DNA of 37,155 bases from NCBI GenBank assembly GCA_043381765.1, contig JBHJMP010000873.1:1-37155 (forward strand). Reading direction: 5' to 3'. Under the pieces are notes generated by a model, which was not told where the DNA came from, did not search any database, and saw nothing but the letters and a program-made list of their open reading frames with translations. Made by a program: the position numbers and the translations under genes. This document shows positions 418-37,155 of this stretch, piece by piece (position 1 is the first letter of the stretch; each line of letters opens with the position of its first letter). The DNA is from Collodictyon triciliatum (taxonomy: Eukaryota).

Positions 418-2733
418 TTACGAGGACTTACTGAAGTGACGTAAAGCGATATATGTATAACATCGCATAGAGATAATAAAGAGAAGCAAAATGCCAATAT
501 ATTGCCCAACAGAAAACTCTACCATATACTTTTCCAGTATTTGTTCGTGGGGTATAAACTCTGCATCGGGACATACCTCGTACTCTGAATAATAATTCGG
601 ATCTTTAGAACAGGAGAATTTAATATCACCAGACACATCAACCTTAAGCAACACACCAAAGGCATAAGGAAAGAATGAGGCATATCTGAGTTGTCGTATC
701 CCATTTGGTATTCTATCTATTTGGGCAAAGAATCCAGTCAATAGACAAGATGCAATCATTAACGTGACAGCTACGATAATTGATTTTTCAAAGTCTGGTA
801 CTGTTGCACTTATTGCAAGGCCCAGCGATTGTGCTGTGAGGCAATTAAGGAGAAAGCAAAACCAGAACAGAAAAAAGTGAGCAGGGTCTGGATTCAGCCC
901 TGTGACCCAGTAAATTATCAAAAGAGAAAACGATGGCCACAACAGTTCAAAAGGAAGCTCTGCTGTTGATTTTGCGAGGTAATAAGCGAGAAGTCTATAT
1001 GACCCTGAAGCTCTTTCTTTGATTAAAATATCCCGCTCTCCTGGAAATGAACCTAGCGCACCGAATAGTGATTCAAAAGGCCAGTTGGTGGTGAGAAAGA
1101 AAATAGCACCGATGCGATTCTCTATACTCTCTTCCTGTGTTCCAACCTGGAACCAAATAGCACCGAAAATGATTGATAGGGCAATGTTCTGCCAAAACAA
1201 TATGGATTTGATAGTCTGGCCACGCTTTAGTTTAGATGCTCTGGAACAGAGAACTTGATACTGTTGCCAAAGACTTGTGGGCCATACAGTTTCTTCGTTT
1301 TGGGTCTGGAATTGAATTTTTGCTAGGTTTTGTCCTTCTGTTGGAAGAGTCCTGCTGTTGAAAACTGGCTCTATGGAAAATGCAGGCGCTCCTGAATGTC
1401 CACAATCTACATCAATGTCTTTTTCTATTATGTGCCCACTTTTTCTTTGGCTCTCAACATATGCTTCGATTGAGGAAACAATTGTAGACTTTACCTCTTT
1501 CTCATACTTACTGATCAAGTTTTTTTTGGATGAATCGGAGTTGGGATATCTTGGAGGTGTTGCATGTGCCACTATATCATATTTTGGCAACTCTTGGTCA
1601 CATAGTAGATCCATCAAGTAATCTGCTATGTTAAAACCAGAAGGGCATATGTAATCCAAACTCGAAAAGTAAGATATAGCCATCTTGGCTTGCCCTTGGT
1701 ACGCAATGTGGCCATCAGCCAGAAGAATTAATTGGTCCAGCATGGCAAACATCTGGCTGGATGGTTGGTGGATAGAGAGAATGATGGTTTTGCCCTGCTC
1801 AGCAAGTTTCTTGAGTGTTACAAGTAAGAGGTAAGCAGTGGAAGAGTCAAGACCAGATGTGGGCTCGTCAAGCATGAGTACGCTTGGGTCTGTGATAAGC
1901 TCATTTCCGACATTGACTCGCTTACGCTCCCCACCAGACACTCCTCGTTGCAGCGAGCTTCCTATGATTGAATCAGCACATTTTTCAATTCCGAGGGTGG
2001 TGATAACGTCATCTACGCGCTGCAACTTTTGCTCCCGAGTCATCGAGTTCGGTAGGCGTAGGAGGGCGGTGATTGTAAGAGTCTCACGGGCAGTAAGAGC
2101 TCCAAAAAGTATGTCGTCCTTTAACAAGAGCAAATGGGATTAGACAGCGAAATTATGTTGCATAGACACATATTTTGGTAAAGAAGGAAGGTAACAAGTA
2201 ATAGAAGGACTTTTGTATACCTGCATGACAAAGCCGACGAATTTCTTGATTTGTTTTGTCTTCGGAGCCCCGTTGTAGAGGATGTCTCCAGACAGAGACC
2301 CGCTTTTAATCCGATTACCTAAAACGCTAAGGAGTGTGGTTTTGCCGGAACCTGACGGGCCCATCACGGCAGTTATTTTTCCAGGTAGTGCAGAGCCGCT
2401 AATAGATTGTAAGACTTTCTTCGAATGAGGTTGTTTGGGGCTGGTAGATGTTAAATTATCATTTTTTGGGACAGTTCCATGCATAGATGTTTCTTCTGCG
2501 TCGAAGCCCAACAAATTCTTTGCACTCGTTGCGATATGGCGAAGGGAGCTTTTTAACCCATCTAGAGTACCTTGTGGCACTAATATACGAACTGTGTAAT
2601 CGATGTTGTAAAAATCTACACGAAGAGGTGTGCTCTGTGACCAAACTTTAACGAGGCTGCCTTTCGAACTCAAGTTGGCACTGCCATTGTGCTGGGTGAG
2701 ATCCGGTTTCTCAGGGGCCGCCTCAATGACACT
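418..2733 (-). CDS. ABCG-family half transporter (NBD-TMD); exons 2733-2221 and 2118-418
   Basis: Walker A GPSGSGKTT. Q-loop VMQ|DD is joined across a phase-0 GT..AG intron at 2220-2119. Signature VSGGERKRV, Walker B MLDEP, H-loop SIHQP, then a hydrophobic ABC2 membrane domain ending at TAA 420-418. The exon starts right after a TAG acceptor (2736-2734) with no ATG before the first NBD strand (LRVDFYNIDYTV). Confidence 0.96.
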
Positions 2734-2879
2734 CTATACATACATTAGACTTCATTGGTCAATTAAGGTGTTGTTTATTTATTATAAAAATAAGCAAAAT
2801 TATTGTGATAAATGACTTTGTAAGAATCAGTGAATGCAAGAAATAAACGCCCTACTAAAATGAATGAATATTTAATTAC

Positions 2880-3468
2880 CAGCGAATTGTGTGCGAGGAT
2901 GCTAGTCTTTGTGACATCAATTTGCATGGCTATGTGATATACAGGTTGTCCCTGGCTATCAAGCAAAGGCTGGGCGTCCAAGTAGTTCCAGTACGGCAAC
3001 CCATCGTCTCCATAGTCCAATACAACATTCTTTGCTTCACAAGCTTCTGGTGAAGACATGGATAACGATCTAATGTTTTCGTTATTATATAATATTATAT
3101 TATGTTATGTTATATTCTACTCGTGGTCGAGTTTGAAGAGCCTTATGATACCGATTTAATGGAGATGATCACGAAATACGATAGCTAACTGCATATATGG
3201 GTAATAATATGGACACTAACTGAGCAACTTCAACACGCGGCGTCACAGAACCCTGTCTGCGGTGGTAATAATGTCCATCCAACTTCAACATGTTGAACTG
3301 TGAACTCTCAAAGAACTCGTGTGACGCAGCAACTACCGGACAATCAGCCAGCTGCGGATTAAGAAGCACAAAGCACGGCGATATTGAATTTAGAGACTCT
3401 ACCAAATCGGTGTCCACGGCAGGCGGCAAACTTAATGCATCACGGGTGGTCGCCAGGAGGGTTGGTGG
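2880..3468 (-). CDS. Degenerate LOV/PAS domain exons (about 3468-3221 and 3069-2880); probable N-terminal part of the ABCG gene
   Basis: The spliced sequence CFVLLNPQLADCPVVAASHEF..GHYYHRRQGSVT..VVLDYGDDGLPYWNYLDAQPLLDSQGQPVYHIAMQIDVT follows the LOV consensus (FVITDPRLPDNPIIFAS..GRNCRFLQG..NY.K.G..FWN....P..D..G....IGVQ.DVT). Phase-2 intron 3220-3070 (GTTAGT..TAG) and phase-0 intron 2879-2734 (GTAATT..CTAAT..TAG) both preserve frame. The 5' boundary is uncertain. Confidence 0.8.
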
Positions 3469-3707
3469 CTTTGGTGTGAAGTATAGTCGTCATTCATAGT
3501 TCATAAAGGCTACGTAAATCATGGAATGCCTGGAACCTTTGCTGTTGGTGGAAGGCCGTGATTATTTTTGCTGCGGCCGAGGAGACGAGGCATCAGAAAG
3601 CAGAGTAGCTTAGTGTTCTTGTTTACTGGTGAAGTGTAAGGCGGCTCTGTAAAATGTATCGAAGTTTGTTTGTTTGTTTTGTTTGATTGATTGTGTTTTA
3701 TTTTTTT

Positions 3708-3815
3708 GTTTGTTTGTTTGTTTGTTTGTTTGTTTGTTTGTTTGTTTGTTTGTTTGTTTGTTTGTTTGTTTGTTTGTTTGTTTGTTTGTTTGTTTGTTTG
3801 TTTGTTTGTTTGTTT
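3708..3815. repeat. (GTTT)27 microsatellite
   Basis: Perfect tetranucleotide run, with degenerate copies at 3664-3700. Confidence 0.97.
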
Positions 3816-4570
3816 GAGGCTATCAATAGGAGTAATCGTTGTTGGTTGTGGCTGTGTGGGCATATCCTGTGTGACGAAGTGGAAGTGCTTGACAATCCCT
3901 TTACTTCCGCTGGTTGGCTGTGGTTGTCGGCTTTATATCTTGAAATTGTGGGGATTACGGCGGGTGGGGAATGGGATAGGAGACGGGCGCTGGCTTTGTG
4001 TCTACTCCTGGTATATTCCAGAGAAAAATTCATTTGGCCAGCTTCACTGAATCCTTTTCGTGTCGTTTGGGCTTCCTTGGAGTTTGAATTTATATTATCC
4101 GGATTGGTCATGTTGACTTTAGCGTGGCCACCATCTCGTATGTGGTTCATGGGCTCTGTGTCTTAATTATTACTGGAATATAATTTAATAATGATAATTT
4201 TATTTTAATTACCCATTTATAAAGTATCGAATATATATTTATGGATCAATAACTAAATCTAGATCATTATGTCGTGAACCAGCACCAATCCACTAAATCA
4301 AGTCTCGTGTCAGAGAACCGCAAGCAGAGGCTAAGCAAAACAGAAGCAACCCGAGCCAAGAGACTTACCCGAAAGATAACTGTGCCAATGCTAGGAAAGT
4401 AGCCATCACTTAGGCCCCCTTTCACCACCACACCACACAACCTCTGAGATTGGAACATGATCTGCTGTTTTCCAACACCTGAAGAGCAACTTCCTAGCAA
4501 TAAATAGTAATATTAAAAAAAAAAAAATAAGTATATATAAACGCCGCAACAGGGAAATACACCAGCAAAG

Positions 4571-12783: not shown

Positions 12784-13767
12784 CTGAGAGGAAATAATGT
12801 GTATTTTTTGTATGAGTTCGTCATATGGGTTTTTGTTTCTTATCCAAAAAAAATAATTAGTCGAACAAAGGATGTAAACCATGATAAATGATTCAACACA
12901 GTGCCCTAAAACCATGTTTGCAAAAAGGGATATTAAAAAAAGTAATGATATATTAATGTGAGGAGGAAATACGTATCCCAGCCAAAGAAGTATAAGGAGA
13001 AAGAACATGGATAGAAAAAAACCTTCAAAAAAATAATAATCATTAGTCTGCTTTCATAATGAAGGAAATCAGCCACCTCAGCAATGTCCCGAGCGAACTT
13101 GTACGGGTAATGCTTCTATTGAGAGGAAAGCAATGATCTGTACGTCCCAGTAATCTTAATCGCTTTTGCCCGTAGGTGTGCCGTGGTCGGAACAGTTGTA
13201 AATATCACCCTGCGGGCGAGGCAGGTATCTTGGGTGCCCGATTCAGATGGCCTCGCCTTGTCCCTTCACCTGATTGGTGCGAGTCCTGGAGTCTCTGGTG
13301 CAGCAGATCAGAGTGGCGCTGAGGCCCTTGGAAAGGGTTAGGGCACAGGGGGTGAGCTGCCATGAGACTGGCAAGGTCTTGAATGCCCGGGAGGCCATCC
13401 GTTGGAGAAGGGGAGCAGGGGCCCAGTACAGGGACTGTGAGCGTGGCGGCCTTATAAATCACTCGCGTTTTTAAGAGTTCTTTTTTTATTCTTTTGCGAA
13501 AGAGAGGGGGTTGCGATGAAAGAGAATAAAATAATGATGTCGGGGGAGTGTTTCGGAAGGGAGTTGCAGCTGGAGGGACAGGAGGGAGGTACGGGAGTCT
13601 TCAGGTTCGAGCAGTGGCATTGCGGCAGATCAGTCTCAGTGGGCGGGACGCAGCCAGGATGGTGTTCCGTGAGTCCCGGGGTTGGCCTCCACATGAGCGC
13701 ATTGGCTTCGTCAGTTGGAGGAAGGACAAGGGCTCACCGCGTGGCTGGCAGCAGAGATGCAGGCTGC

Positions 13768-15210
13768 TTAGAAGTCAAACTTGCTCTGGGCTGGCTGGGT
13801 GGCGGCAAGCAGGGGGTTGACACGGGCAGCTGGGGCCGGGGCCGGAGCGGGAGCAGGGGCCGAGCCGAAGGTGGGGTTGACTGGGGCGAGGGGCTCCGGG
13901 GTGGAGTCACGGGCCTTTCCGGTCAAGGGGTTGAAGCTGCGGGCGGTGGCCTGGGGAGCGGCCGAGCCGAAGGTGGGGTTGGCGACCACCGGGGCGACTA
14001 CTGGGGCGGGGGCGGCAGCGGGAGCTGGGGCAGGGGTGGAGAAGGAGGTGGTGCCCGAGAAGGAGACGGTGGCAGGGCTGTACGAGCCGGAGGGCTTTCC
14101 GGTCAGGGGGTTGACACGGGGAGAGGGCTGCGTCTGCGAGAAGCTGGCGGCAGGGGTGGCGACAACAGGGGCGACAACAGGGGCGGGGGCGGGGACGGCG
14201 AAGGAGCGGTTAGAAGCCTGGGAGTTCTCCAGCTCGTGGACGCGGCGCTCAGCAAACTCAGCACGTTGGCGGGCCTCCTCAGCCTCAGCACGCAGGCGGG
14301 CGGCCTCCTCTTCGGCGCGGATGCGGGCGGCCTCAGAGGCGTGGAACTGGGCGTTGGCCTCCTGCTCCTTGTGCAGGCGGGCAGCCTCGGCCTCCTCCTC
14401 AGCACGCTTGCGGGAGGCAGCCTGGCGACGGGCAGCCTCGGCCTCTTCCTCGGCACGCTTGCGGGCAGCATCCTGCTCGGCCTTGATGCGGGCACCCTCC
14501 GACAGATTGAAGCTGCGGGTCTTGGTCTCCTCATCCTTCTGCGAGCGGATGGCCTCCACGTAGGAGCTGAGGGAAGCGCGCGGGGCGGGGCCGGCAGCCT
14601 GGTTGAGGGAGCGGGTGGAGGCGCGGGGGAAGAACTGGTAGCCCTCCTCCTGCACAGGCACGGGTACGGGGGCGGCAGCGACGGAGTACGAGCGGGTGGA
14701 GCCGGCGTAGGGCAGAGGCACGGCGGCGGGGGCGGCCACTGTGGTGGGGGCGGCGGTGGTGGAGGTGGTCTGCACAGTGGTGGAGGCGGCGGGCAGCACG
14801 TACGAGCGGGTGGCGCCGGAGGGGGGGAGGACGAAGGAGCGGGTGGCGCCGGCAGGGAAGTAGGAGCCGCTGTAGGCGGTGATCGGGGCGGGGACGACAG
14901 TGGCGGCGGCAGAGGCGGCAGGGGCGGCGGTGGTGGAGGTGGTCAGGGTGGCGGCGGGGGCCGGGGCGACAACAGGGGCCGGGGCGGCGACAACGGGCAG
15001 GGTGTAGCTGCGGGTGGAGGCGCCGTAGAAGCTACAGGGGTGGGCGGATGAGCTGCGGAGTCAGAGGGTCGCAGGGCGCGAGGGGGTCAGGGCGTACCCG
15101 GCAGGATAGGCGGCGGGGTAGGAGGCGCCGAGGGAGCTGTAGCCGTAGGGGACGGGGGCGCCGATGACGACGGGGGCGGTGGCGGTGGTGGCGGGGGCTT
15201 CGGAAGACAT
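13768..15210 (-). CDS. 458-aa Ala/Pro/Thr/Val-rich repeat protein with a central charged coiled coil; exons 15210-15098 and 15031-13768
   Basis: ATG at 15210. A 66-nt intron 15097-15032 (GTACGC..CTGAC..TAG) removes an in-frame TGA. Strong C-ending codon bias; AEEEAEAARR coiled-coil repeats; ends SKFDF-TAA. Confidence 0.85.
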
Positions 15211-16257
15211 CGGGGCGGTGGTGTGGGTGGCGGGGATGCTGTGGGGCGGAGGATGGGTTGAGTGGGGTGAGCAGTCATTCCTTGGGCGCAGGTGGATCGG
15301 CGAGTCGCCTCCGTGCGGGGTTTCGAGTGATCGGTTTTGTTCGCGGTCTCGTCTCCCTGCTGCGCTTTTGGGCCGCTTGGGTGTGTGTGGGTGTATGTGT
15401 GCGCTTGCGAGGAATCGTGGGCGCGGATCATTAAAGCGCGCGTTGTGTTTAAATATCTGTTCAGCTGAGAGAAGTCGCTGCGCTTCGAGTGTGCAACGCA
15501 TATATAGACCTTCTTCGAATGTTCTACACGCTATCATTACGTAATCTGTCGCTTTTCTGCGAAACATGGAGATGGAAATGGAAGGTATCCGGTTTATTTT
15601 TTTGAATGTTTGAAATTTGTTTTGGAAAAAGGCCTGCACCACTGTGGTCTAGGCTTGTGGCCATGGCTTTGTTGCGCCCGCCACTAATGCTGTGTGTCCC
15701 ACGCGGCAGATGCTGGAAACCATGCCCAAAAATAGGCAGCGCTCGGTGCGTTTGTTGCAGACTATTGCAATCCTGGATTCCAGAAATCCTGGTTTCGCTT
15801 GTAGGTAAATCAGTTGGTCATTTTATTTCTGGAAAATAATGAATTAAAAGTATTTACTCTCCTCAGGCCTCGATAGGACTTAATAATTGTTTGAATATTG
15901 TAATGTGCTGTCCATTTTATGGAATCATCGACCCCTGCAGGCGCCAAATACACAGCGTGCACCCGCATTGAATGAATTGTCGCTCAGTCCAGCGGTGGCC
16001 CAGTGTAAGAGGGATGTCTTTATTGATAGCGCAAGTCAAAGCAATCTTCGAGTGCCATAAGCAACATCCGTAAAGGGGACACAACCAGAAAATCGACACA
16101 CCAAACAGGAGAAACCAAGATTCAAGAGCAATATGAGGGGAGGGAAACAGAGAGACACAGACAAAGACACAAGCACGAGCACAAGCACAAGCACAGACAC
16201 AGGCACAAGCAACGCCAGGGTCTCGAGGCAGGGTGTGGAGGAACAAAAGGTGCTGTG

Positions 16258-28400: not shown

Positions 28401-30121
28401 TCCATTCTTCATTCTTCATTCCCTTCCCTCAATTTAATATGAATAAAAACTAAGTATCATCCATACAAGGCGGTCAAGCTTGCTCAACAGGCTCGACGTT
28501 TGGTGGCAAAGACAGAAACCTATTTTGTGGCTGACACATTCTCTATGTATGGGAGATTAGCTCTAGCATCTTGGCGGCATGGCGACAGAAGCGGGTATGT
28601 AAATGCTGTATTTTGCCATTATTTCAAGGTATAATTGAAATACAAAAATCCATGAGACGCCTTCACGTTTTCTTTGTTATTCACTTCCTTTCCTTCTGTA
28701 TCTTCGATTATGAACACAAATGCAGCGCATTCTCTGCCGCCTTATCAGCCCATTCACTAATCAGCAAAGTCGATCAAATCAATTTTTCCTCGTATGAAGG
28801 TTACGCTGGGATGTGCGAAGTGAGTGTACTTTCCTTTTAATTTGACCCAAAGTGCAAATAGCTGCATTAAATTCAACAACTAAATATAAAGCTAGGAAAG
28901 GTGTATCATAAATACATACATGCCATAGATATCCATATGCAATACTTAATTAACCAATTGTCCAATCCTCCAAACAAGGTTTTGCTGTCTATTCTCGAGA
29001 AACCTTCTGATTTCCGGAATGAAGTTGCAGCTGCGCCTCAAGGAAAACCTACTCCGATGAGCAAGGGGTCTGGACGAGTTGGGTCTGTTGACGACAATCA
29101 CGATTTGGAGGCTTCACAAACCAGTACCCAAATTCGAATGTTTAATCTGGAAGATATGTCTATGGAGCAGCTTTTACGTGTGTCTAAAGAGTCTGTGGAG
29201 CATTTTCTCTTGTTTGCTGAGAGGTTAGATAATCTTCTCAAGTGCCTCGATAAAAAATTTTCCCTCATTCCTCTTGTATTTCATACATATGGGCTTTATT
29301 TATTCATTAGATAATCCTTTGCAGTTACAAATTTGCGCAACCAAGGGCGCTTCTATATAGTGCACTTTATCGGAAACACAGCGAGATAGCTGGGAAACAT
29401 ATCTCCCCTGCCCAAAAGGATGCCCTGTCTGCGGTTATCCGAAAAGTGGTTCAAAAGAGCCTCTCCTTGTCACGGTTCTGCTTTATCCTTTATCCTTTAT
29501 CCTTTATCCTTTATCCTTTATCCTTTATCCTTTATCCTTTATCCTTTATCCTTTATCCTTTATCCTTTATCCTTTATCCTTTATCCTTTATCCTTTATCC
29601 TTTATCCTTTATCCTTTATCCTTTATCCTTTATCCTTTATCCTTTATCCTTTACCCTTTACCCTTTCTTTTTTTCTTTTTTTTTCTTATTTTCTTTTTTT
29701 CTTATTTTCTTTTTTTCTTATTTTCTTTTTGGTTTTTTTTGGTATTTTTTGGTTTTTTTGGTTTTTTTTTTTTTGGTTTTTTTTGGTTTTTTTTTTTTTG
29801 GTTTTTTTTGGTTTTTTTTTTTTGGTTTTTTTTTGGTTTTTTTTTGGTTTTTTTTGGTTTTTTTGGTTTTTTTGGTTTTTTTATCTCGCTCAAATGGTTC
29901 ACAATTGGCATTTCTAAACCTTCCATCCGCATTATACGTTTTTTTTTTTTATGCTAACTAAAATCGTAAATAGCGAATATGATATGCCGTTTGAAGAAGG
30001 AATGGCTCTGTATGTCAGTGCTTCGTGTGGAGGTGGGCAAGAAGATGCACGAAAAGCAGATAGCATATTTTCGCAGCTGGGGGTTGTGCGTCCTGTTGCA
30101 TCGTCCATTCCATCTCTATGA
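19457..30121 (+). CDS. Soluble adenylyl cyclase (ADCY10)-like protein: disordered N-terminus, two class III cyclase domains, STAND NTPase, TPR-like C-terminus; ~38 exons
   Basis: C1: VACLYAKIDGFSQIT, FDGDVMKVTGNSLFAIW, IGLGAG..LGGVGGMWELVLAG. C2: NEARRVTVVVVN, GFGLPPLSHEDDPFRAV, GIATGKIFCGTIGNSTRKEYAMIG. Walker A GPAGI|GKS; LIMENAQ|YMDSASW; KSQGNPLF; LK|VASVIG; YTFVNQVIREAAYELLL; QQLHKSIAEWYE; YANQEAVRYF. The last exon ends at TGA 30119-30121. Confidence 0.92.
29482..29663. repeat. (TTTATCC)24 heptamer satellite followed by two TTTACCC variants
   Basis: Perfect 7-mer array just after the donor of the last intron of the cyclase-like gene, followed by T-rich GGTTTTTTT repeats to about 29880. 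Confidence 0.97.
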
Positions 30122-31971: not shown

Positions 31972-32064
31972 TATCAGGATATTGTGATACGGAGTCGATT
32001 TTTCCACTCGCTCCTGTCCATTTCGGTTCTATTTGTGATTCATTTTGACTATATTTTAGCTCCC

Positions 32065-32195
32065 CTTTTTTCTTCTTTTTTCTCCTTTTTTCCTCTCTTT
32101 TCCTCTTTTTTCTTCTTTTTTCTTCTTTTTTCTTCTTTTTTCTTCTTTTTTCTTCTTTTTTCTTCTTTTTTCTTCTTTTTTCCTCTCTTTTCCTG
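32065..32195. repeat. Pyrimidine-rich (TTCTTCTTTT)n low-complexity repeat
   Basis: Tandem ~10-mer T/C units. Confidence 0.85.
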
Positions 32196-32430
32196 TTTCA
32201 ATATTCGATTACGCGATGGTTACATCACATCTCCATCCACTTACGTAGACCTTTTATTTTTCCCCTATTTTTTTTCTTTCATTCATCTAGACTCTTTCCT
32301 TTGTTTTGTTGGTGTCTGCTCCACACGACCTACTATGAGATAAATGTGTACAATCAAGAAAACAAAAGTGGTGACGGTGTTCTGATCACTTTCTTTTCTT
32401 TCCCTTTCCTCTCTCCCTCTCTCCCTCTCT

Positions 32431-32914
32431 NNNNNNNNNNNNNNNNNNNNNNNNNNNNNNNNNNNNNNNNNNNNNNNNNNNNNNNNNNNNNNNNNNNNNN
32501 NNNNNNNNNNNNNNNNNNNNNNNNNNNNNNNNNNNNNNNNNNNNNNNNNNNNNNNNNNNNNNNNNNNNNNNNNNNNNNNNNNNNNNNNNNNNNNNNNNNN
32601 NNNNNNNNNNNNNNNNNNNNNNNNNNNNNNNNNNNNNNNNNNNNNNNNNNNNNNNNNNNNNNNNNNNNNNNNNNNNNNNNNNNNNNNNNNNNNNNNNNNN
32701 NNNNNNNNNNNNNNNNNNNNNNNNNNNNNNNNNNNNNNNNNNNNNNNNNNNNNNNNNNNNNNNNNNNNNNNNNNNNNNNNNNNNNNNNNNNNNNNNNNNN
32801 NNNNNNNNNNNNNNNNNNNNNNNNNNNNNNNNNNNNNNNNNNNNNNNNNNNNNNNNNNNNNNNNNNNNNNNNNNNNNNNNNNNNNNNNNNNNNNNNNNNN
32901 NNNNNNNNNNNNNN
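32431..32914. other. Assembly gap (484 N)
   Basis: Run of N; it interrupts the kinase C-lobe. Confidence 0.99.
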
Positions 32915-35900
32915 TCTTGTCTTGAGCTCAGGCGCCATGTACTGGGTGGGTGGGTGGGTGGGTGAAAGAGGCCGCGAATGTGATGGACAGTCTCAGGTAT
33001 ACTTACTTATCTATCGATGTGTTTGGTATTTGGGTTATGTCGGTTATGGTCGTAGTTGTACATACGCAGTCTTTTTTCGGGGCTAGTCGAGTATCGGCCA
33101 GATATGAACGGGTTACGTCAAAGCCCTAATTTAAGTGGGTGATAAGGTTTTCTCAACAGGAGGAAGTGTGCGGCGTTTGGATGAGGAAGGGAAGGGAAGG
33201 GAAGGGGAAAGGGAAGGGAAGAGAAGAAAATAGAGAGGAAAGTAATAGCAATAGTAATAAATTAATAATAAAAAGGAAGTAAAAGGGATAGTAGAAAAGT
33301 AAGAACGAGTGAAAATGAGCTCTTGATTAAGGATTAATAACAATAATAATAATAAATTACATAGTCAGATATGCGGATATTGAAGTTTCGGTCAACCTTT
33401 ATGCGGGTGGTTATCAAACGTGAACTCGTGATAATTGACACGTCTGAAAATCAATTATGTATATGAATAAGAATGAAAGTCTTTGGTACCAGAATATTGT
33501 TGCTCGTAATATTCCGATGAATAATCCCGTTAGCGTGCAGAGTTGAAAGGCCTTGAGACATCTTCAATGCCTTTGGTGAAAATGAGGAAAAAATAATTAA
33601 AATGTGCCATGAGAGTGAGCAAGATGTACACAATGGATTTGTGTTAAAGAAAAGAAAAATGAATACATATAGACGAGTAGAATGTGGACTATTACCAGCT
33701 GAACAAGAGTCTTTGGTTCAAGGTCAGCATTCTCGTTCAAAACGTCGCGAATACTCCCAGATTCCATGTACTCATAAATAATCATATATCGACTTTGGCT
33801 GATGGTCAAGGCCGTCAGCCGCAGTAGAAAAGGATGTTTTATTTTCCTGTAAAGAAGTTAGTTTTCTTTAGTTGTAATCAGTTTGTTCTTTTATATCTTC
33901 TACCCGATCTGGTGAATGTAGGAAAGACAGTAAAGTGATAACCCAGTCTGGTATAGAAAAAGAAATTAAAAAAAAACGTTCATATACCGGATTTTATTGG
34001 CCTCTGAAATAAGTATATCGTCAGCATTTTGTAAAGATATCTCGTTCTTGGATATTTCTTTGGCGATGTGTTGCTTCCCAAATAAATAGCAATCGAATAT
34101 TCTCCCCATAGTTCCAGTGCAAAAGTGTTCACCTAGAATGACACTCTTTTCCGCCACAATGAGGGGGTCGGGTTTTTGGTAGTAAATCAAATCTAGTCCT
34201 AATTGAAAAATGGTAGAATGGGACGGGTTGGAAATATTTGATAATGCTGCATCCTCTTTTTGGTGTAGGACAACAGTCAATCTAAGCGCGATACTGAGTG
34301 TTAGTTGATATAATTTCGAAATACAACAAGAACAAAAGAAATAATACGGAAGAATGAAGCATATCATTGCTATATGTTTTCATATTTTTTTAAAATTATT
34401 ATTATTATTATTATAAAAACCTCTCGAAAATAGTCTTGGGTGTACATAAAGGAGGTGCCTGTGTTCGAACAAAAATATCCTTGCTGACAGCTTGGGATGC
34501 AGGTATGGTTGAATTGGCTCCATTTTCCCAAGAGATAGTAATGGATTTAGTAGGTTCTTGAGTGATGGTACTAATTGTGCCATTACAAAACGACGGGATA
34601 TTGGTTTCAGGTAAAAAATATCCAGACGTTACTCGTTCATTAATCTCCATGCTCTCTGTGCTGATTCTACAGAGAAAGCTTTCATCTAGATTTCGGAAAA
34701 TCAACAAAATCTCATTGAAAGCTAAACTCTAAAAAAAAAAAAGAGAAGATAAAGCAATATTTATAGCCTTTTAAAAAATCATCAAACTCTATGGTGGTGA
34801 TAGCGCTTTGCACAGGAAGACAAAGCTACTGACATCGCACATAGAATAAGAAAAGAACAGATATATATTCAACCAATTACCATGTATGGCTAGAGAGAGA
34901 TCTGTTATCAGCGGAGTTGAACGGTAAAATCCATAGTTCCCCCAGTCCCATTTCACACTAACAGTAACTCTGTCTTCACTGAGCGAATCGACCGTGCCGA
35001 ATAATTCCAACAATTCTTCTGGATATTGTGTGTATTCAGAGCGGAAGTCGGGTCCCTTTTTTACACGAACTCCAGGGAGCAGTCTGTCCGGGGTGGCTGG
35101 AGGCTCCAAAGTATATCGATTCATGTTTACTGTATTGAATATCGATAAGCTATAATGATGCATTTTCATCTTGTATATAGTATCTTTTCAAAAAAAAAAA
35201 AGAAAAAAGAAGTAAATCTAGAAGAAATTGGAAGAAACTTCTCGTATTGACGTAGTATAAGTTACTGTAAATAAGTCACCCATATACATGAACAAAAACA
35301 AAGATAACAGAAGCGAGAACCTGGAGCTGTAAAGAATAATTTGTAGAAGCTTGACTTTCCTATTTCAAATGATGTTGTGACAGATTCTGAAAACTGGACT
35401 ATGCATGTTTTGTCGACCGTGTCCACACTGATTACTTTTCCTGTGTCAGAATTATCGGGGCCAAGACCCTTCACACTAGCCCCGATGTAAACATTCGAAG
35501 TGTTTACAATCACATTGAATTCTGTGGAGAGAAGAGTGATGAATATTACTAGGACAGATGACATAAATTATTGAGGATATTGATTTTCAAAAGATAAATA
35601 TGCCCAAATGAAGTAAGATGGAAAGTAACAAGGATAATAGTAGCCTTAGTAATGAAATATCACTATCGGTTATTGGAGTCCCCATTGCAGATACAAGAGG
35701 CTTGTGATAACCCCAAGGACAGTATGCCAGTGGACACGTAGTGTTATTATGTGTAGAGACAGTGAAAAGCTTCTTGGAGTCAAGCCAGTAAACAATCCAA
35801 CCGTTTTTTGTTTCCTCTAGAAGGTACCCATATGAGTCCAGTTCTCCATGGATATCACCAAATTCCCAGTTTGGCCCCCGTACAACAGGAAGACCGGGTA

Positions 35901-37037: not shown

Positions 37038-37092
37038 GTTTTTTGTTTTTTTGTTTTTTTGTTTTTGTTTTTTTTGTTTTTTTGTTTTTTTT

Positions 37093-37155
<63 letters not shown>
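37038..37155. repeat. (GTTTTTT)n and poly-T tract at the window end
   Basis: Low-complexity T run, probably intronic or a contig end. Confidence 0.9.

Follow-up and report, generated by a model that had tools for sequence, protein, structure and literature searches.

Among the closest described systems to the gene considered here are ABCG half-transporters, which work as homo- or heterodimers. Arabidopsis ABCG25 (8i38), the substrate of which is abscisic acid, and human ABCG2 (6eti), the substrates of which are urate and drugs, share a reverse topology, in which the nucleotide-binding domain (NBD) precedes the transmembrane domain, and carry all of the ATPase motifs. Unlike the protein discussed below, their chains comprise 655-698 residues and leave no room for an N-terminal sensor of comparable size, and we take the solved ABCG25 and ABCG2 to be without a PAS domain. 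We know of no ABC exporter on which a fused sensor domain acts directly as a switch, and literature searches for one found none. A 'LOV-ABC transporter' is named in passing in section 3.4 of a recent preprint, among 13 algal modular LOV proteins identified by bioinformatics (bioRxiv 10.1101/2025.06.20.660589), while our literature searches found no experimental study of LOV/PAS-ABCG proteins. Here we analyse such a gene from Collodictyon triciliatum (assembly GCA_043381765.1), located in contig JBHJMP010000873.1, the whole of which (37,155 nt) is referred to as the window. With a probability of roughly 0.8, we read the locus as one minus-strand gene, in a genome resembling that of a heterotrophic protist, encoding a LOV-derived PAS domain, a linker and an ABCG half-transporter. 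The preliminary description of the window, made from its letters, had proposed a PAS-ABCG fusion, and this proposal was supported: a full LOV-type PAS domain is predicted upstream and an ABCG half-transporter downstream, collinear with database proteins that combine PAS_9 and ABCG families.

Stop-to-stop frames and direct translation place four coding blocks on the minus strand, with a predicted product of ~890 residues. Exon 1 (3489-3221), which lies in the stop-to-stop open reading frame (ORF) 3169-3489, encodes an N-terminal cap followed by the first half of the LOV-type PAS domain, and precedes intron 1 (3220-3070), which is 151 nt long, reads GTTAGT...TTAG and has a GC content of 0.305. 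Exon 2 (3069-2880) supplies the second half of the PAS domain, whose end (...QIDVTK) falls at 2924-2907, together with the start of a linker of ~45 residues. Intron 2 (2879-2734; 146 nt, GTAATT...TATAG) corresponds to the junction that would create the PAS-ABCG fusion; it contains a CTAAT motif at 2748-2744 and, with a GC content of 0.247, is the most AT-rich segment. Exon 3 (2733-2221) encodes linker, the first NBD strand, Walker A and Q-loop sequence, and intron 3 (2220-2119; 102 nt, GTATAC...AAAG) precedes the large exon 4 (2118-418), the coding part of which (2118-421) covers the remainder of the NBD and the ABC-2 membrane domain and ends at a TAA stop codon at 420-418. Exon GC contents range from 0.43 to 0.51 (0.506 for exon 1) compared to 0.25-0.33 for the introns, and every intron bears stops in all three frames, with 3, 4 and 7 of them in intron 2.

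The last codon of exon 1 is split in phase 2 and takes its third base from exon 2, and the end of exon 2 and the start of exon 3 are both phase 0. The 3 joins read VEVAQ/SLSMS, AHNSL/SVIEA and FVMQ/DDILF in the protein, and that of exons 2 and 3 extends to ...AMQIDVTKTSILAHNSL/SVIEAAPEK...LRVDFYNIDYTV; at intron 3, the sequence VMQ/DDILF matches homologues in the alignment. An in-frame TAG (2736-2734) abuts the start of exon 3 at 2733 and doubles as the splice acceptor. In addition, the conserved first NBD strand, LRVDFYNIDYTV, is encoded at 2625-2590, upstream of the first in-frame ATG of exon 3 (2484-2482), which lies 36 residues past this strand and 41 residues ahead of Walker A. Because of the TAG directly upstream and the conserved strand before the first ATG, exon 3 is best explained as an internal exon. 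Several details that the preliminary description had given for these junctions were all correct on the minus strand: an ABCG exon starting at 2733 without an upstream in-frame ATG and preceded by CTAAT and a TAG acceptor, a GTAATT donor at 2879 that closes the previous exon in the same phase, and introns of 146 and 151 nt.

RNA bearing on these junctions came from three lake/freshwater metatranscriptome runs, each with small shares of the stretch; 2 of them, X1 and X2, share the same records and may represent a single data set. A 187-nt contig present in both matches 2891-3069 with 0 differences and then extends by 8 letters identical to 3221-3228, where exon 1 ends; the chance of such an agreement (8 of 8) is ~1.5e-5. 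Intron 1 is removed in RNA: the 3221/3069 junction, which the preliminary description had singled out for checking, is seen in this contig. A contig from X3 covers 2384-2525, within exon 3, and runs into adapter at its end, and the third metatranscriptome match is a diverged 43-nt ABC motif. Stretches not reached by these contigs carry no weight in either direction. Splicing of exon 2 to exon 3 is suggested by the shared phase, the TAG upstream of 2733, the conserved NBD strand encoded before any ATG and the homologues.

The spliced product of exons 1 and 2 was scored in scripts against a hidden Markov model (HMM) built from phototropin LOV1 domains. It reached 51.7 bits over HMM positions 3-118, and the corresponding scores were 42.1 bits for a LOV2 HMM and 36.4 bits for one made from the PAS domains of six fused homologues, compared to 8.7 bits or less for the best of 2000 shuffles. 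Thus the PAS match for the spliced upstream exons, which the preliminary description had named as a test, was found, and it extends over the full length of the phototropin LOV1 and LOV2 profiles. Since exon 1 and exon 2 each match the LOV1 HMM alone (18.7 and 29.8 bits, respectively), the PAS domain is in register across the verified junction. These scores indicate that spliced exons 1 and 2 encode a full-length LOV-type PAS domain. In a PAS tree of 41 rows, from which the database protein P0082 was left out on account of its short match, the domain of the window groups with eukaryotic LOV domains and not with bacterial multi-PAS rows (support 84), and its best identity within this set is 32%. 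A search of 1.84 billion representatives with exon 2 returned 226 proteins at E<=0.001, of which the 150 listed are 25-46% identical; neither the window's own protein nor an orthologue was among the matches listed, and 9 of 10 sampled matches are PAS_9 proteins according to Pfam. One of the matches, P0362, has 18 matched stretches, with Tcp10_C among its hits, and exon 2 itself contains a segment, GDDG..YWNYLD, that looks like a short beta-hairpin repeat. A scan of metagenome contigs with exon 2 found one locus, L001, which is not an orthologue. Its bacterial-looking ORF (970-2538 of L001, plus strand) is 53% identical to exon 2 over 34 residues and reads by eye as a multi-PAS protein with a GGDEF-like end.

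The sequence GxNCRFLQ is a conserved LOV motif (bioRxiv 10.1101/2025.06.20.660589). At the corresponding position (3250-3276, minus strand), the window carries a degenerate flavin-adduct motif, GHYYHRRQG, in place of GRNCRFLQG: alignments show that the adduct cysteine is replaced by tyrosine, the preceding asparagine by tyrosine and the following arginine by histidine. The asparagine of the NY(K/R)KxG position is likewise lost, being aspartate in the window. In contrast to these 4 differences from phototropin LOV domains, the motif-final glutamine, the asparagine of the (F/Y)WN position and the glutamine of the (V/M)QxDV position (GVQxDV in phototropins) are retained; our identification of the flavin-touching residues among these positions is an assumption. 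A further difference from phototropins is that the PAS domain is predicted to be joined to a transporter and not to a kinase. Because the adduct cysteine is absent, a LOV cysteine-adduct photocycle is excluded for this domain as predicted, and binding of flavin by it is doubtful. The name 'LOV' in the preliminary description therefore does not hold in the sense of a photoreceptor, as both the adduct cysteine and the neighbouring arginine are missing.

Exons 3 and 4 matched Pfam ABC_tran at 4.8e-8 and 7.2e-10, respectively, and ABC2_membrane was matched at 6.1e-41 by exon 4 residues 289-495, C-terminal to the NBD. Walker A (GPSGSGKT, 2361-2338) lies in exon 3, the Q-loop (VMQDD) spans the exon 3/exon 4 join, and the signature (VSGGERKR, 1941-1918), Walker B (LMLDEPTSGLD, 1878-1846) and H-loop (SIHQPS, 1776-1759) follow in exon 4, all on the minus strand. 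The best matches of exon 4 in the PDB are ABCG25 (6.9e-80) and ABCG2 (4.2e-74), and ABCG1 is also matched. Judged by its motifs and domain order, the product of exons 3 and 4 is a complete reverse-topology ABCG half-transporter, with an NBD followed by a six-helix ABC-2 domain. The substrates of ABCG25 and ABCG2 cannot be transferred to it at 30-40% identity. Its closest ABCG relative is P0003 of Diphylleia rotans, which is 61% identical to exon 4 and pairs with the window in the ABCG trees with a support of 100. The ORF of P0003, although labelled complete, consists of 12 unrelated residues followed by sequence that begins in the middle of Walker A, and is probably an aberrant or partial isoform.

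The same architecture occurs in other eukaryotes. A search with exon 4 scored 8000 candidates, 7075 of which reached E<=0.001, and 5 of the best 120, which were listed, carry precomputed PAS_9 and ABCG families: P0005 of Ancoracysta twista, P0007 of Cyanophora paradoxa, P0010 of Balamuthia mandrillaris (KAL6042921.1, named only 'ABCG2'), P0082 of Chlorokybus atmophyticus and P0048 from TSA. Among the matches listed for exon 3, which are mostly PDR-type and plant ABCGs, the only new fused protein was P0231 of Mesostigma viride, a species that also has the fused protein P0516. Logan contigs yielded one further full-length fused protein, P0513, and an N-terminally cut fragment, P0063. When the N-terminal regions of 113 of 121 relatives were scanned with a PAS HMM (the 8 without a match to the Walker A pattern being left out), 7 of the 113 scored at E<=6e-19, namely six fused proteins and P0063. 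The next best value was 1.8, and the window model itself scored 7.8e-11. Re-scanning nine proteins with Pfam placed PAS_9 (PF13426; gathering cut-off 27 bits) above the cut-off in 6 of them and below it, at 20 bits, in P0063; no PAS_9 was found in the non-fused neighbours P0004 and P0037.

Like the window model, the database LOV/PAS-ABCG proteins possess an N-terminal PAS_9/LOV domain, a linker, an ABCG NBD and an ABC-2 domain in one chain, and their ABCG parts are 36-41% identical to that of the window. The alignment, which covers seven such proteins overall, is collinear through the PAS domain, the linker and the first NBD strand. Consistent with this collinearity, when the canonical proteins were compared by tblastn with the 37-kb window, their best high-scoring segment pairs (HSPs) after the ABCG body were located in one or both of exons 1 and 2, in the right order and on the same strand, with E values from 1.8e-4 to 0.11. 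These HSPs, from P0007, P0048, P0231 and P0513, lie at 3420-3109, with P0513 matching exon 1 only. A search with residues 1-330 of P0007 listed LOV-kinase proteins in all 119 other rows, many of them named phototropin. Among these fused proteins, the YYHRRQ sequence is found in the PAS domain of the window alone. The cysteine of the [NS]CRF[LM]Q motif is present in P0007, P0048, P0231 and P0513 and absent from P0005, P0010, P0082 and the window. By named organism, Ancoracysta and Balamuthia, which we take to be heterotrophs, are without the LOV cysteine, while 2 of the 3 phototrophs keep it and Chlorokybus is without it; with five named organisms, this pattern of cysteine and trophic mode is only a hint. 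The preliminary description had known of no LOV domain attached to an ABCG exporter, a view that has to be revised, as the pairing occurs in at least 5 named and distant eukaryotes and a LOV-ABC transporter is mentioned in section 3.4 of the 2025 preprint. The gene in the window is probably a new, divergent and degenerate member of a known, scattered and experimentally uncharacterised LOV/PAS-ABCG set.

Several observations weigh against a single functional fusion gene. At its 5' end, the frame of exon 1 is closed by a TGA at 3492-3490 and lacks any in-frame ATG ahead of the midpoint of the PAS domain. Although the open frame can be extended upstream in 108 ways, each with its own set of ATG, GT donor and AG acceptor, none of them stands out, such that a defect is possible. 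At the critical junction, no read or contig spans 2880/2733, as the 187-nt contig ends at 2891, 11 nt before the exon 2 donor. Pfam, applied to the exons separately, matched PAS_9 in exon 2 at 12.9 bits (profile positions 68-103 of 103), below its cut-off of 27 bits, and gave no match for exon 1, and the top exon 2 match, P0362, is by Pfam a repeat protein without a PAS domain. The branch that leads to the PAS domain in the PAS tree is very long (3.59), and flavin-contacting residues have been lost from the domain, both of which could mean decay and not a new function. Finally, the nearest relative, P0003, is without a PAS domain, but since its model begins inside Walker A it is uninformative as to the N-terminus.

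Candidate starts for the gene, all on the minus strand, include the ATG at 3593-3591, together with a 68- or 140-nt intron, and those at 4150, 4111 or 4033, with a donor after 3905 or 3959 and an acceptor that makes 3468 the first exon base. A third candidate, the ATG at 3493-3491, is one base out of frame with exon 1, an offset that could represent either a homopolymer assembly error or a real defect. The GC profile shows no AT-rich intron between 3650 and 3470, the GC content of 3470-3650 being exon-like; AT-rich sequence is present at 4151-4250 and in the (CAAA)n tract at 3664-3816. The latter, a (GTTT)n/(CAAA)n microsatellite with 38 repeat units, lies just upstream of exon 1 and may belong to the 5' untranslated region, an upstream intron or the promoter.

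These difficulties with the start, taken with the loss of the cysteine, arginine and other flavin contacts and with the long PAS branch, are what would be expected if the fusion were decaying. In that case the PAS exons would persist as relics of an ancestral LOV-ABCG gene, transcribed and spliced but without translation or function, and synthesis of the transporter would begin at an internal start or a different one. We regard this as unlikely. Exons 1 and 2 contain ~152 stop-free codons, an outcome with a chance of (61/64)^152, or ~7e-4, the PAS profile is matched from end to end, and the splice sites are intact and used. Moreover, the out-of-frame ATG at 3493-3491 is equally explained by an assembly error in a homopolymer, and translation beginning at the first exon 3 ATG would leave out the conserved NBD strand. 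That same strand, encoded ahead of any ATG, also bears on whether the locus harbours two transcription units. In such an arrangement, the product of exons 1 and 2 would be a short PAS protein terminating within intron 2, and the ABCG gene would have a start of its own, in a different first exon or at the ATG of 2484-2482. In favour of two units, short LOV/PAS proteins occur commonly, the frame of exon 2 stays open for 35 codons past its donor (ORF 2775-3104), and the 2880/2733 junction is without RNA cover. In contrast, exon 3 is open exactly from its acceptor, with the TAG directly upstream, intron 2 combines its low GC content of 0.247 and stops in all frames with a donor and acceptor in phase, and seven full-length database proteins display the same domain order in one chain. 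We consider two units slightly less probable even than decay, and favour a single gene encoding the PAS domain, linker and half-transporter.

A single gene could still be a young one. The preliminary description had suggested a young chimeric gene, as would arise if exon shuffling had recently placed a LOV/PAS exon pair ahead of an ordinary ABCG gene in this lineage, independently of other PAS-ABCG proteins. The ABCG trees are compatible with such an event in that the ABCG parts of the fused proteins do not form one clade: they are scattered in the FastTree tree (6 changes over 6 rows) and in a mixture-model tree (7 changes over 8 rows, at least 4 of them forced), with those of Chlorokybus and Mesostigma among green-plant ABCGs and that of Balamuthia with two unfused proteins. 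Forcing nine rows together cost 194 log-likelihood units, with a p value of 6.1e-40 in the AU test for a group that was named after the tree had been seen. An exclusive clade of fused ABCGs was accordingly rejected by both the trees and the AU test. The PAS tree is without resolution apart from its starred branches, which force one change. However, an old fusion followed by repeated loss of the PAS domain would give the same pattern in the ABCG trees, since a paraphyletic set likewise fails a test for an exclusive clade, and the PAS tree forces no more than one origin. The same N-to-C order with a comparable linker, found in at least 5 distant named lineages, also argues against a young gene. 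Among the four rows nearest to the window by path after P0003, fused proteins make up 2 of 4 in the mixture-model tree and 3 of 4 in the FastTree tree. In addition, at a best identity of 32% the PAS domain is highly diverged and is no recent copy of a canonical LOV domain. A recent, private chimera thus appears unlikely, and we hold it to be the least probable of the alternatives by some distance, although the fusion may have arisen more than once. The single-gene reading, with membership in the wider LOV/PAS-ABCG set, remains our preferred explanation.

A Rfam scan of the window gave 0 matches, and Pfam found 0 families in six other large ORFs. A GC-rich island at 13000-15600 (0.55-0.73 compared to ~0.37 around it) contains overlapping long ORFs on both strands, such as that of 536 codons at 13441-15051 on the plus strand, and yielded no Pfam family and no Rfam match. 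Repetitive or low-complexity sequence includes (CTTTATC)x26.6 at 29481-29882, which is followed by a T-rich tract of ~220 nt, a 1-kb stretch at 32001-33000 with a GC content of 0.20 and a (CTTTTTTCTT)n repeat, and a run of T that closes the window (37039-37155).

As to how the predicted protein might operate, it would presumably work as a homodimer, like other ABCG half-transporters. A pair of PAS domains could then sit beside the pair of NBDs and modulate NBD closure and ATPase activity, and hence export. The signal would be something other than cysteine-adduct photochemistry, such as a ligand, redox state or a partner; alternatively, the PAS domain may serve only as a dimerisation or regulatory module. 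The sensor-gated exporter suggested in the preliminary description is likewise an inference. We advance more tentatively, and as less probable than not, the view that LOV/PAS-ABCG proteins represent an old eukaryotic class of sensor-gated exporters, in which those of Cyanophora and Mesostigma would couple ATP-driven export to blue light and those of several lineages without the cysteine, that of the window among them, would be gated by another signal (a ligand, redox state or a partner). That this class would span Archaeplastida, Amoebozoa, Ancoracysta and a Diphylleia-like lineage is put forward equally tentatively.

The gene described here would contribute to this set a divergent representative of a protist lineage that has been poorly sampled, and would extend the fusion beyond algae, the sole group for which section 3.4 of the preprint reports a LOV-ABC transporter (bioRxiv 10.1101/2025.06.20.660589). 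The LOV/PAS-ABCG family would make direct switching of ABC exporters by a sensor testable: its canonical members could be natural blue-light-gated pumps, and its members without the cysteine may show the fate of a sensor after loss of its photochemistry. If sensor gating is true of these proteins, their sensor would be the first in nature shown to exert direct control over a eukaryotic ABC exporter, and would provide a ready template for light-controlled transport.

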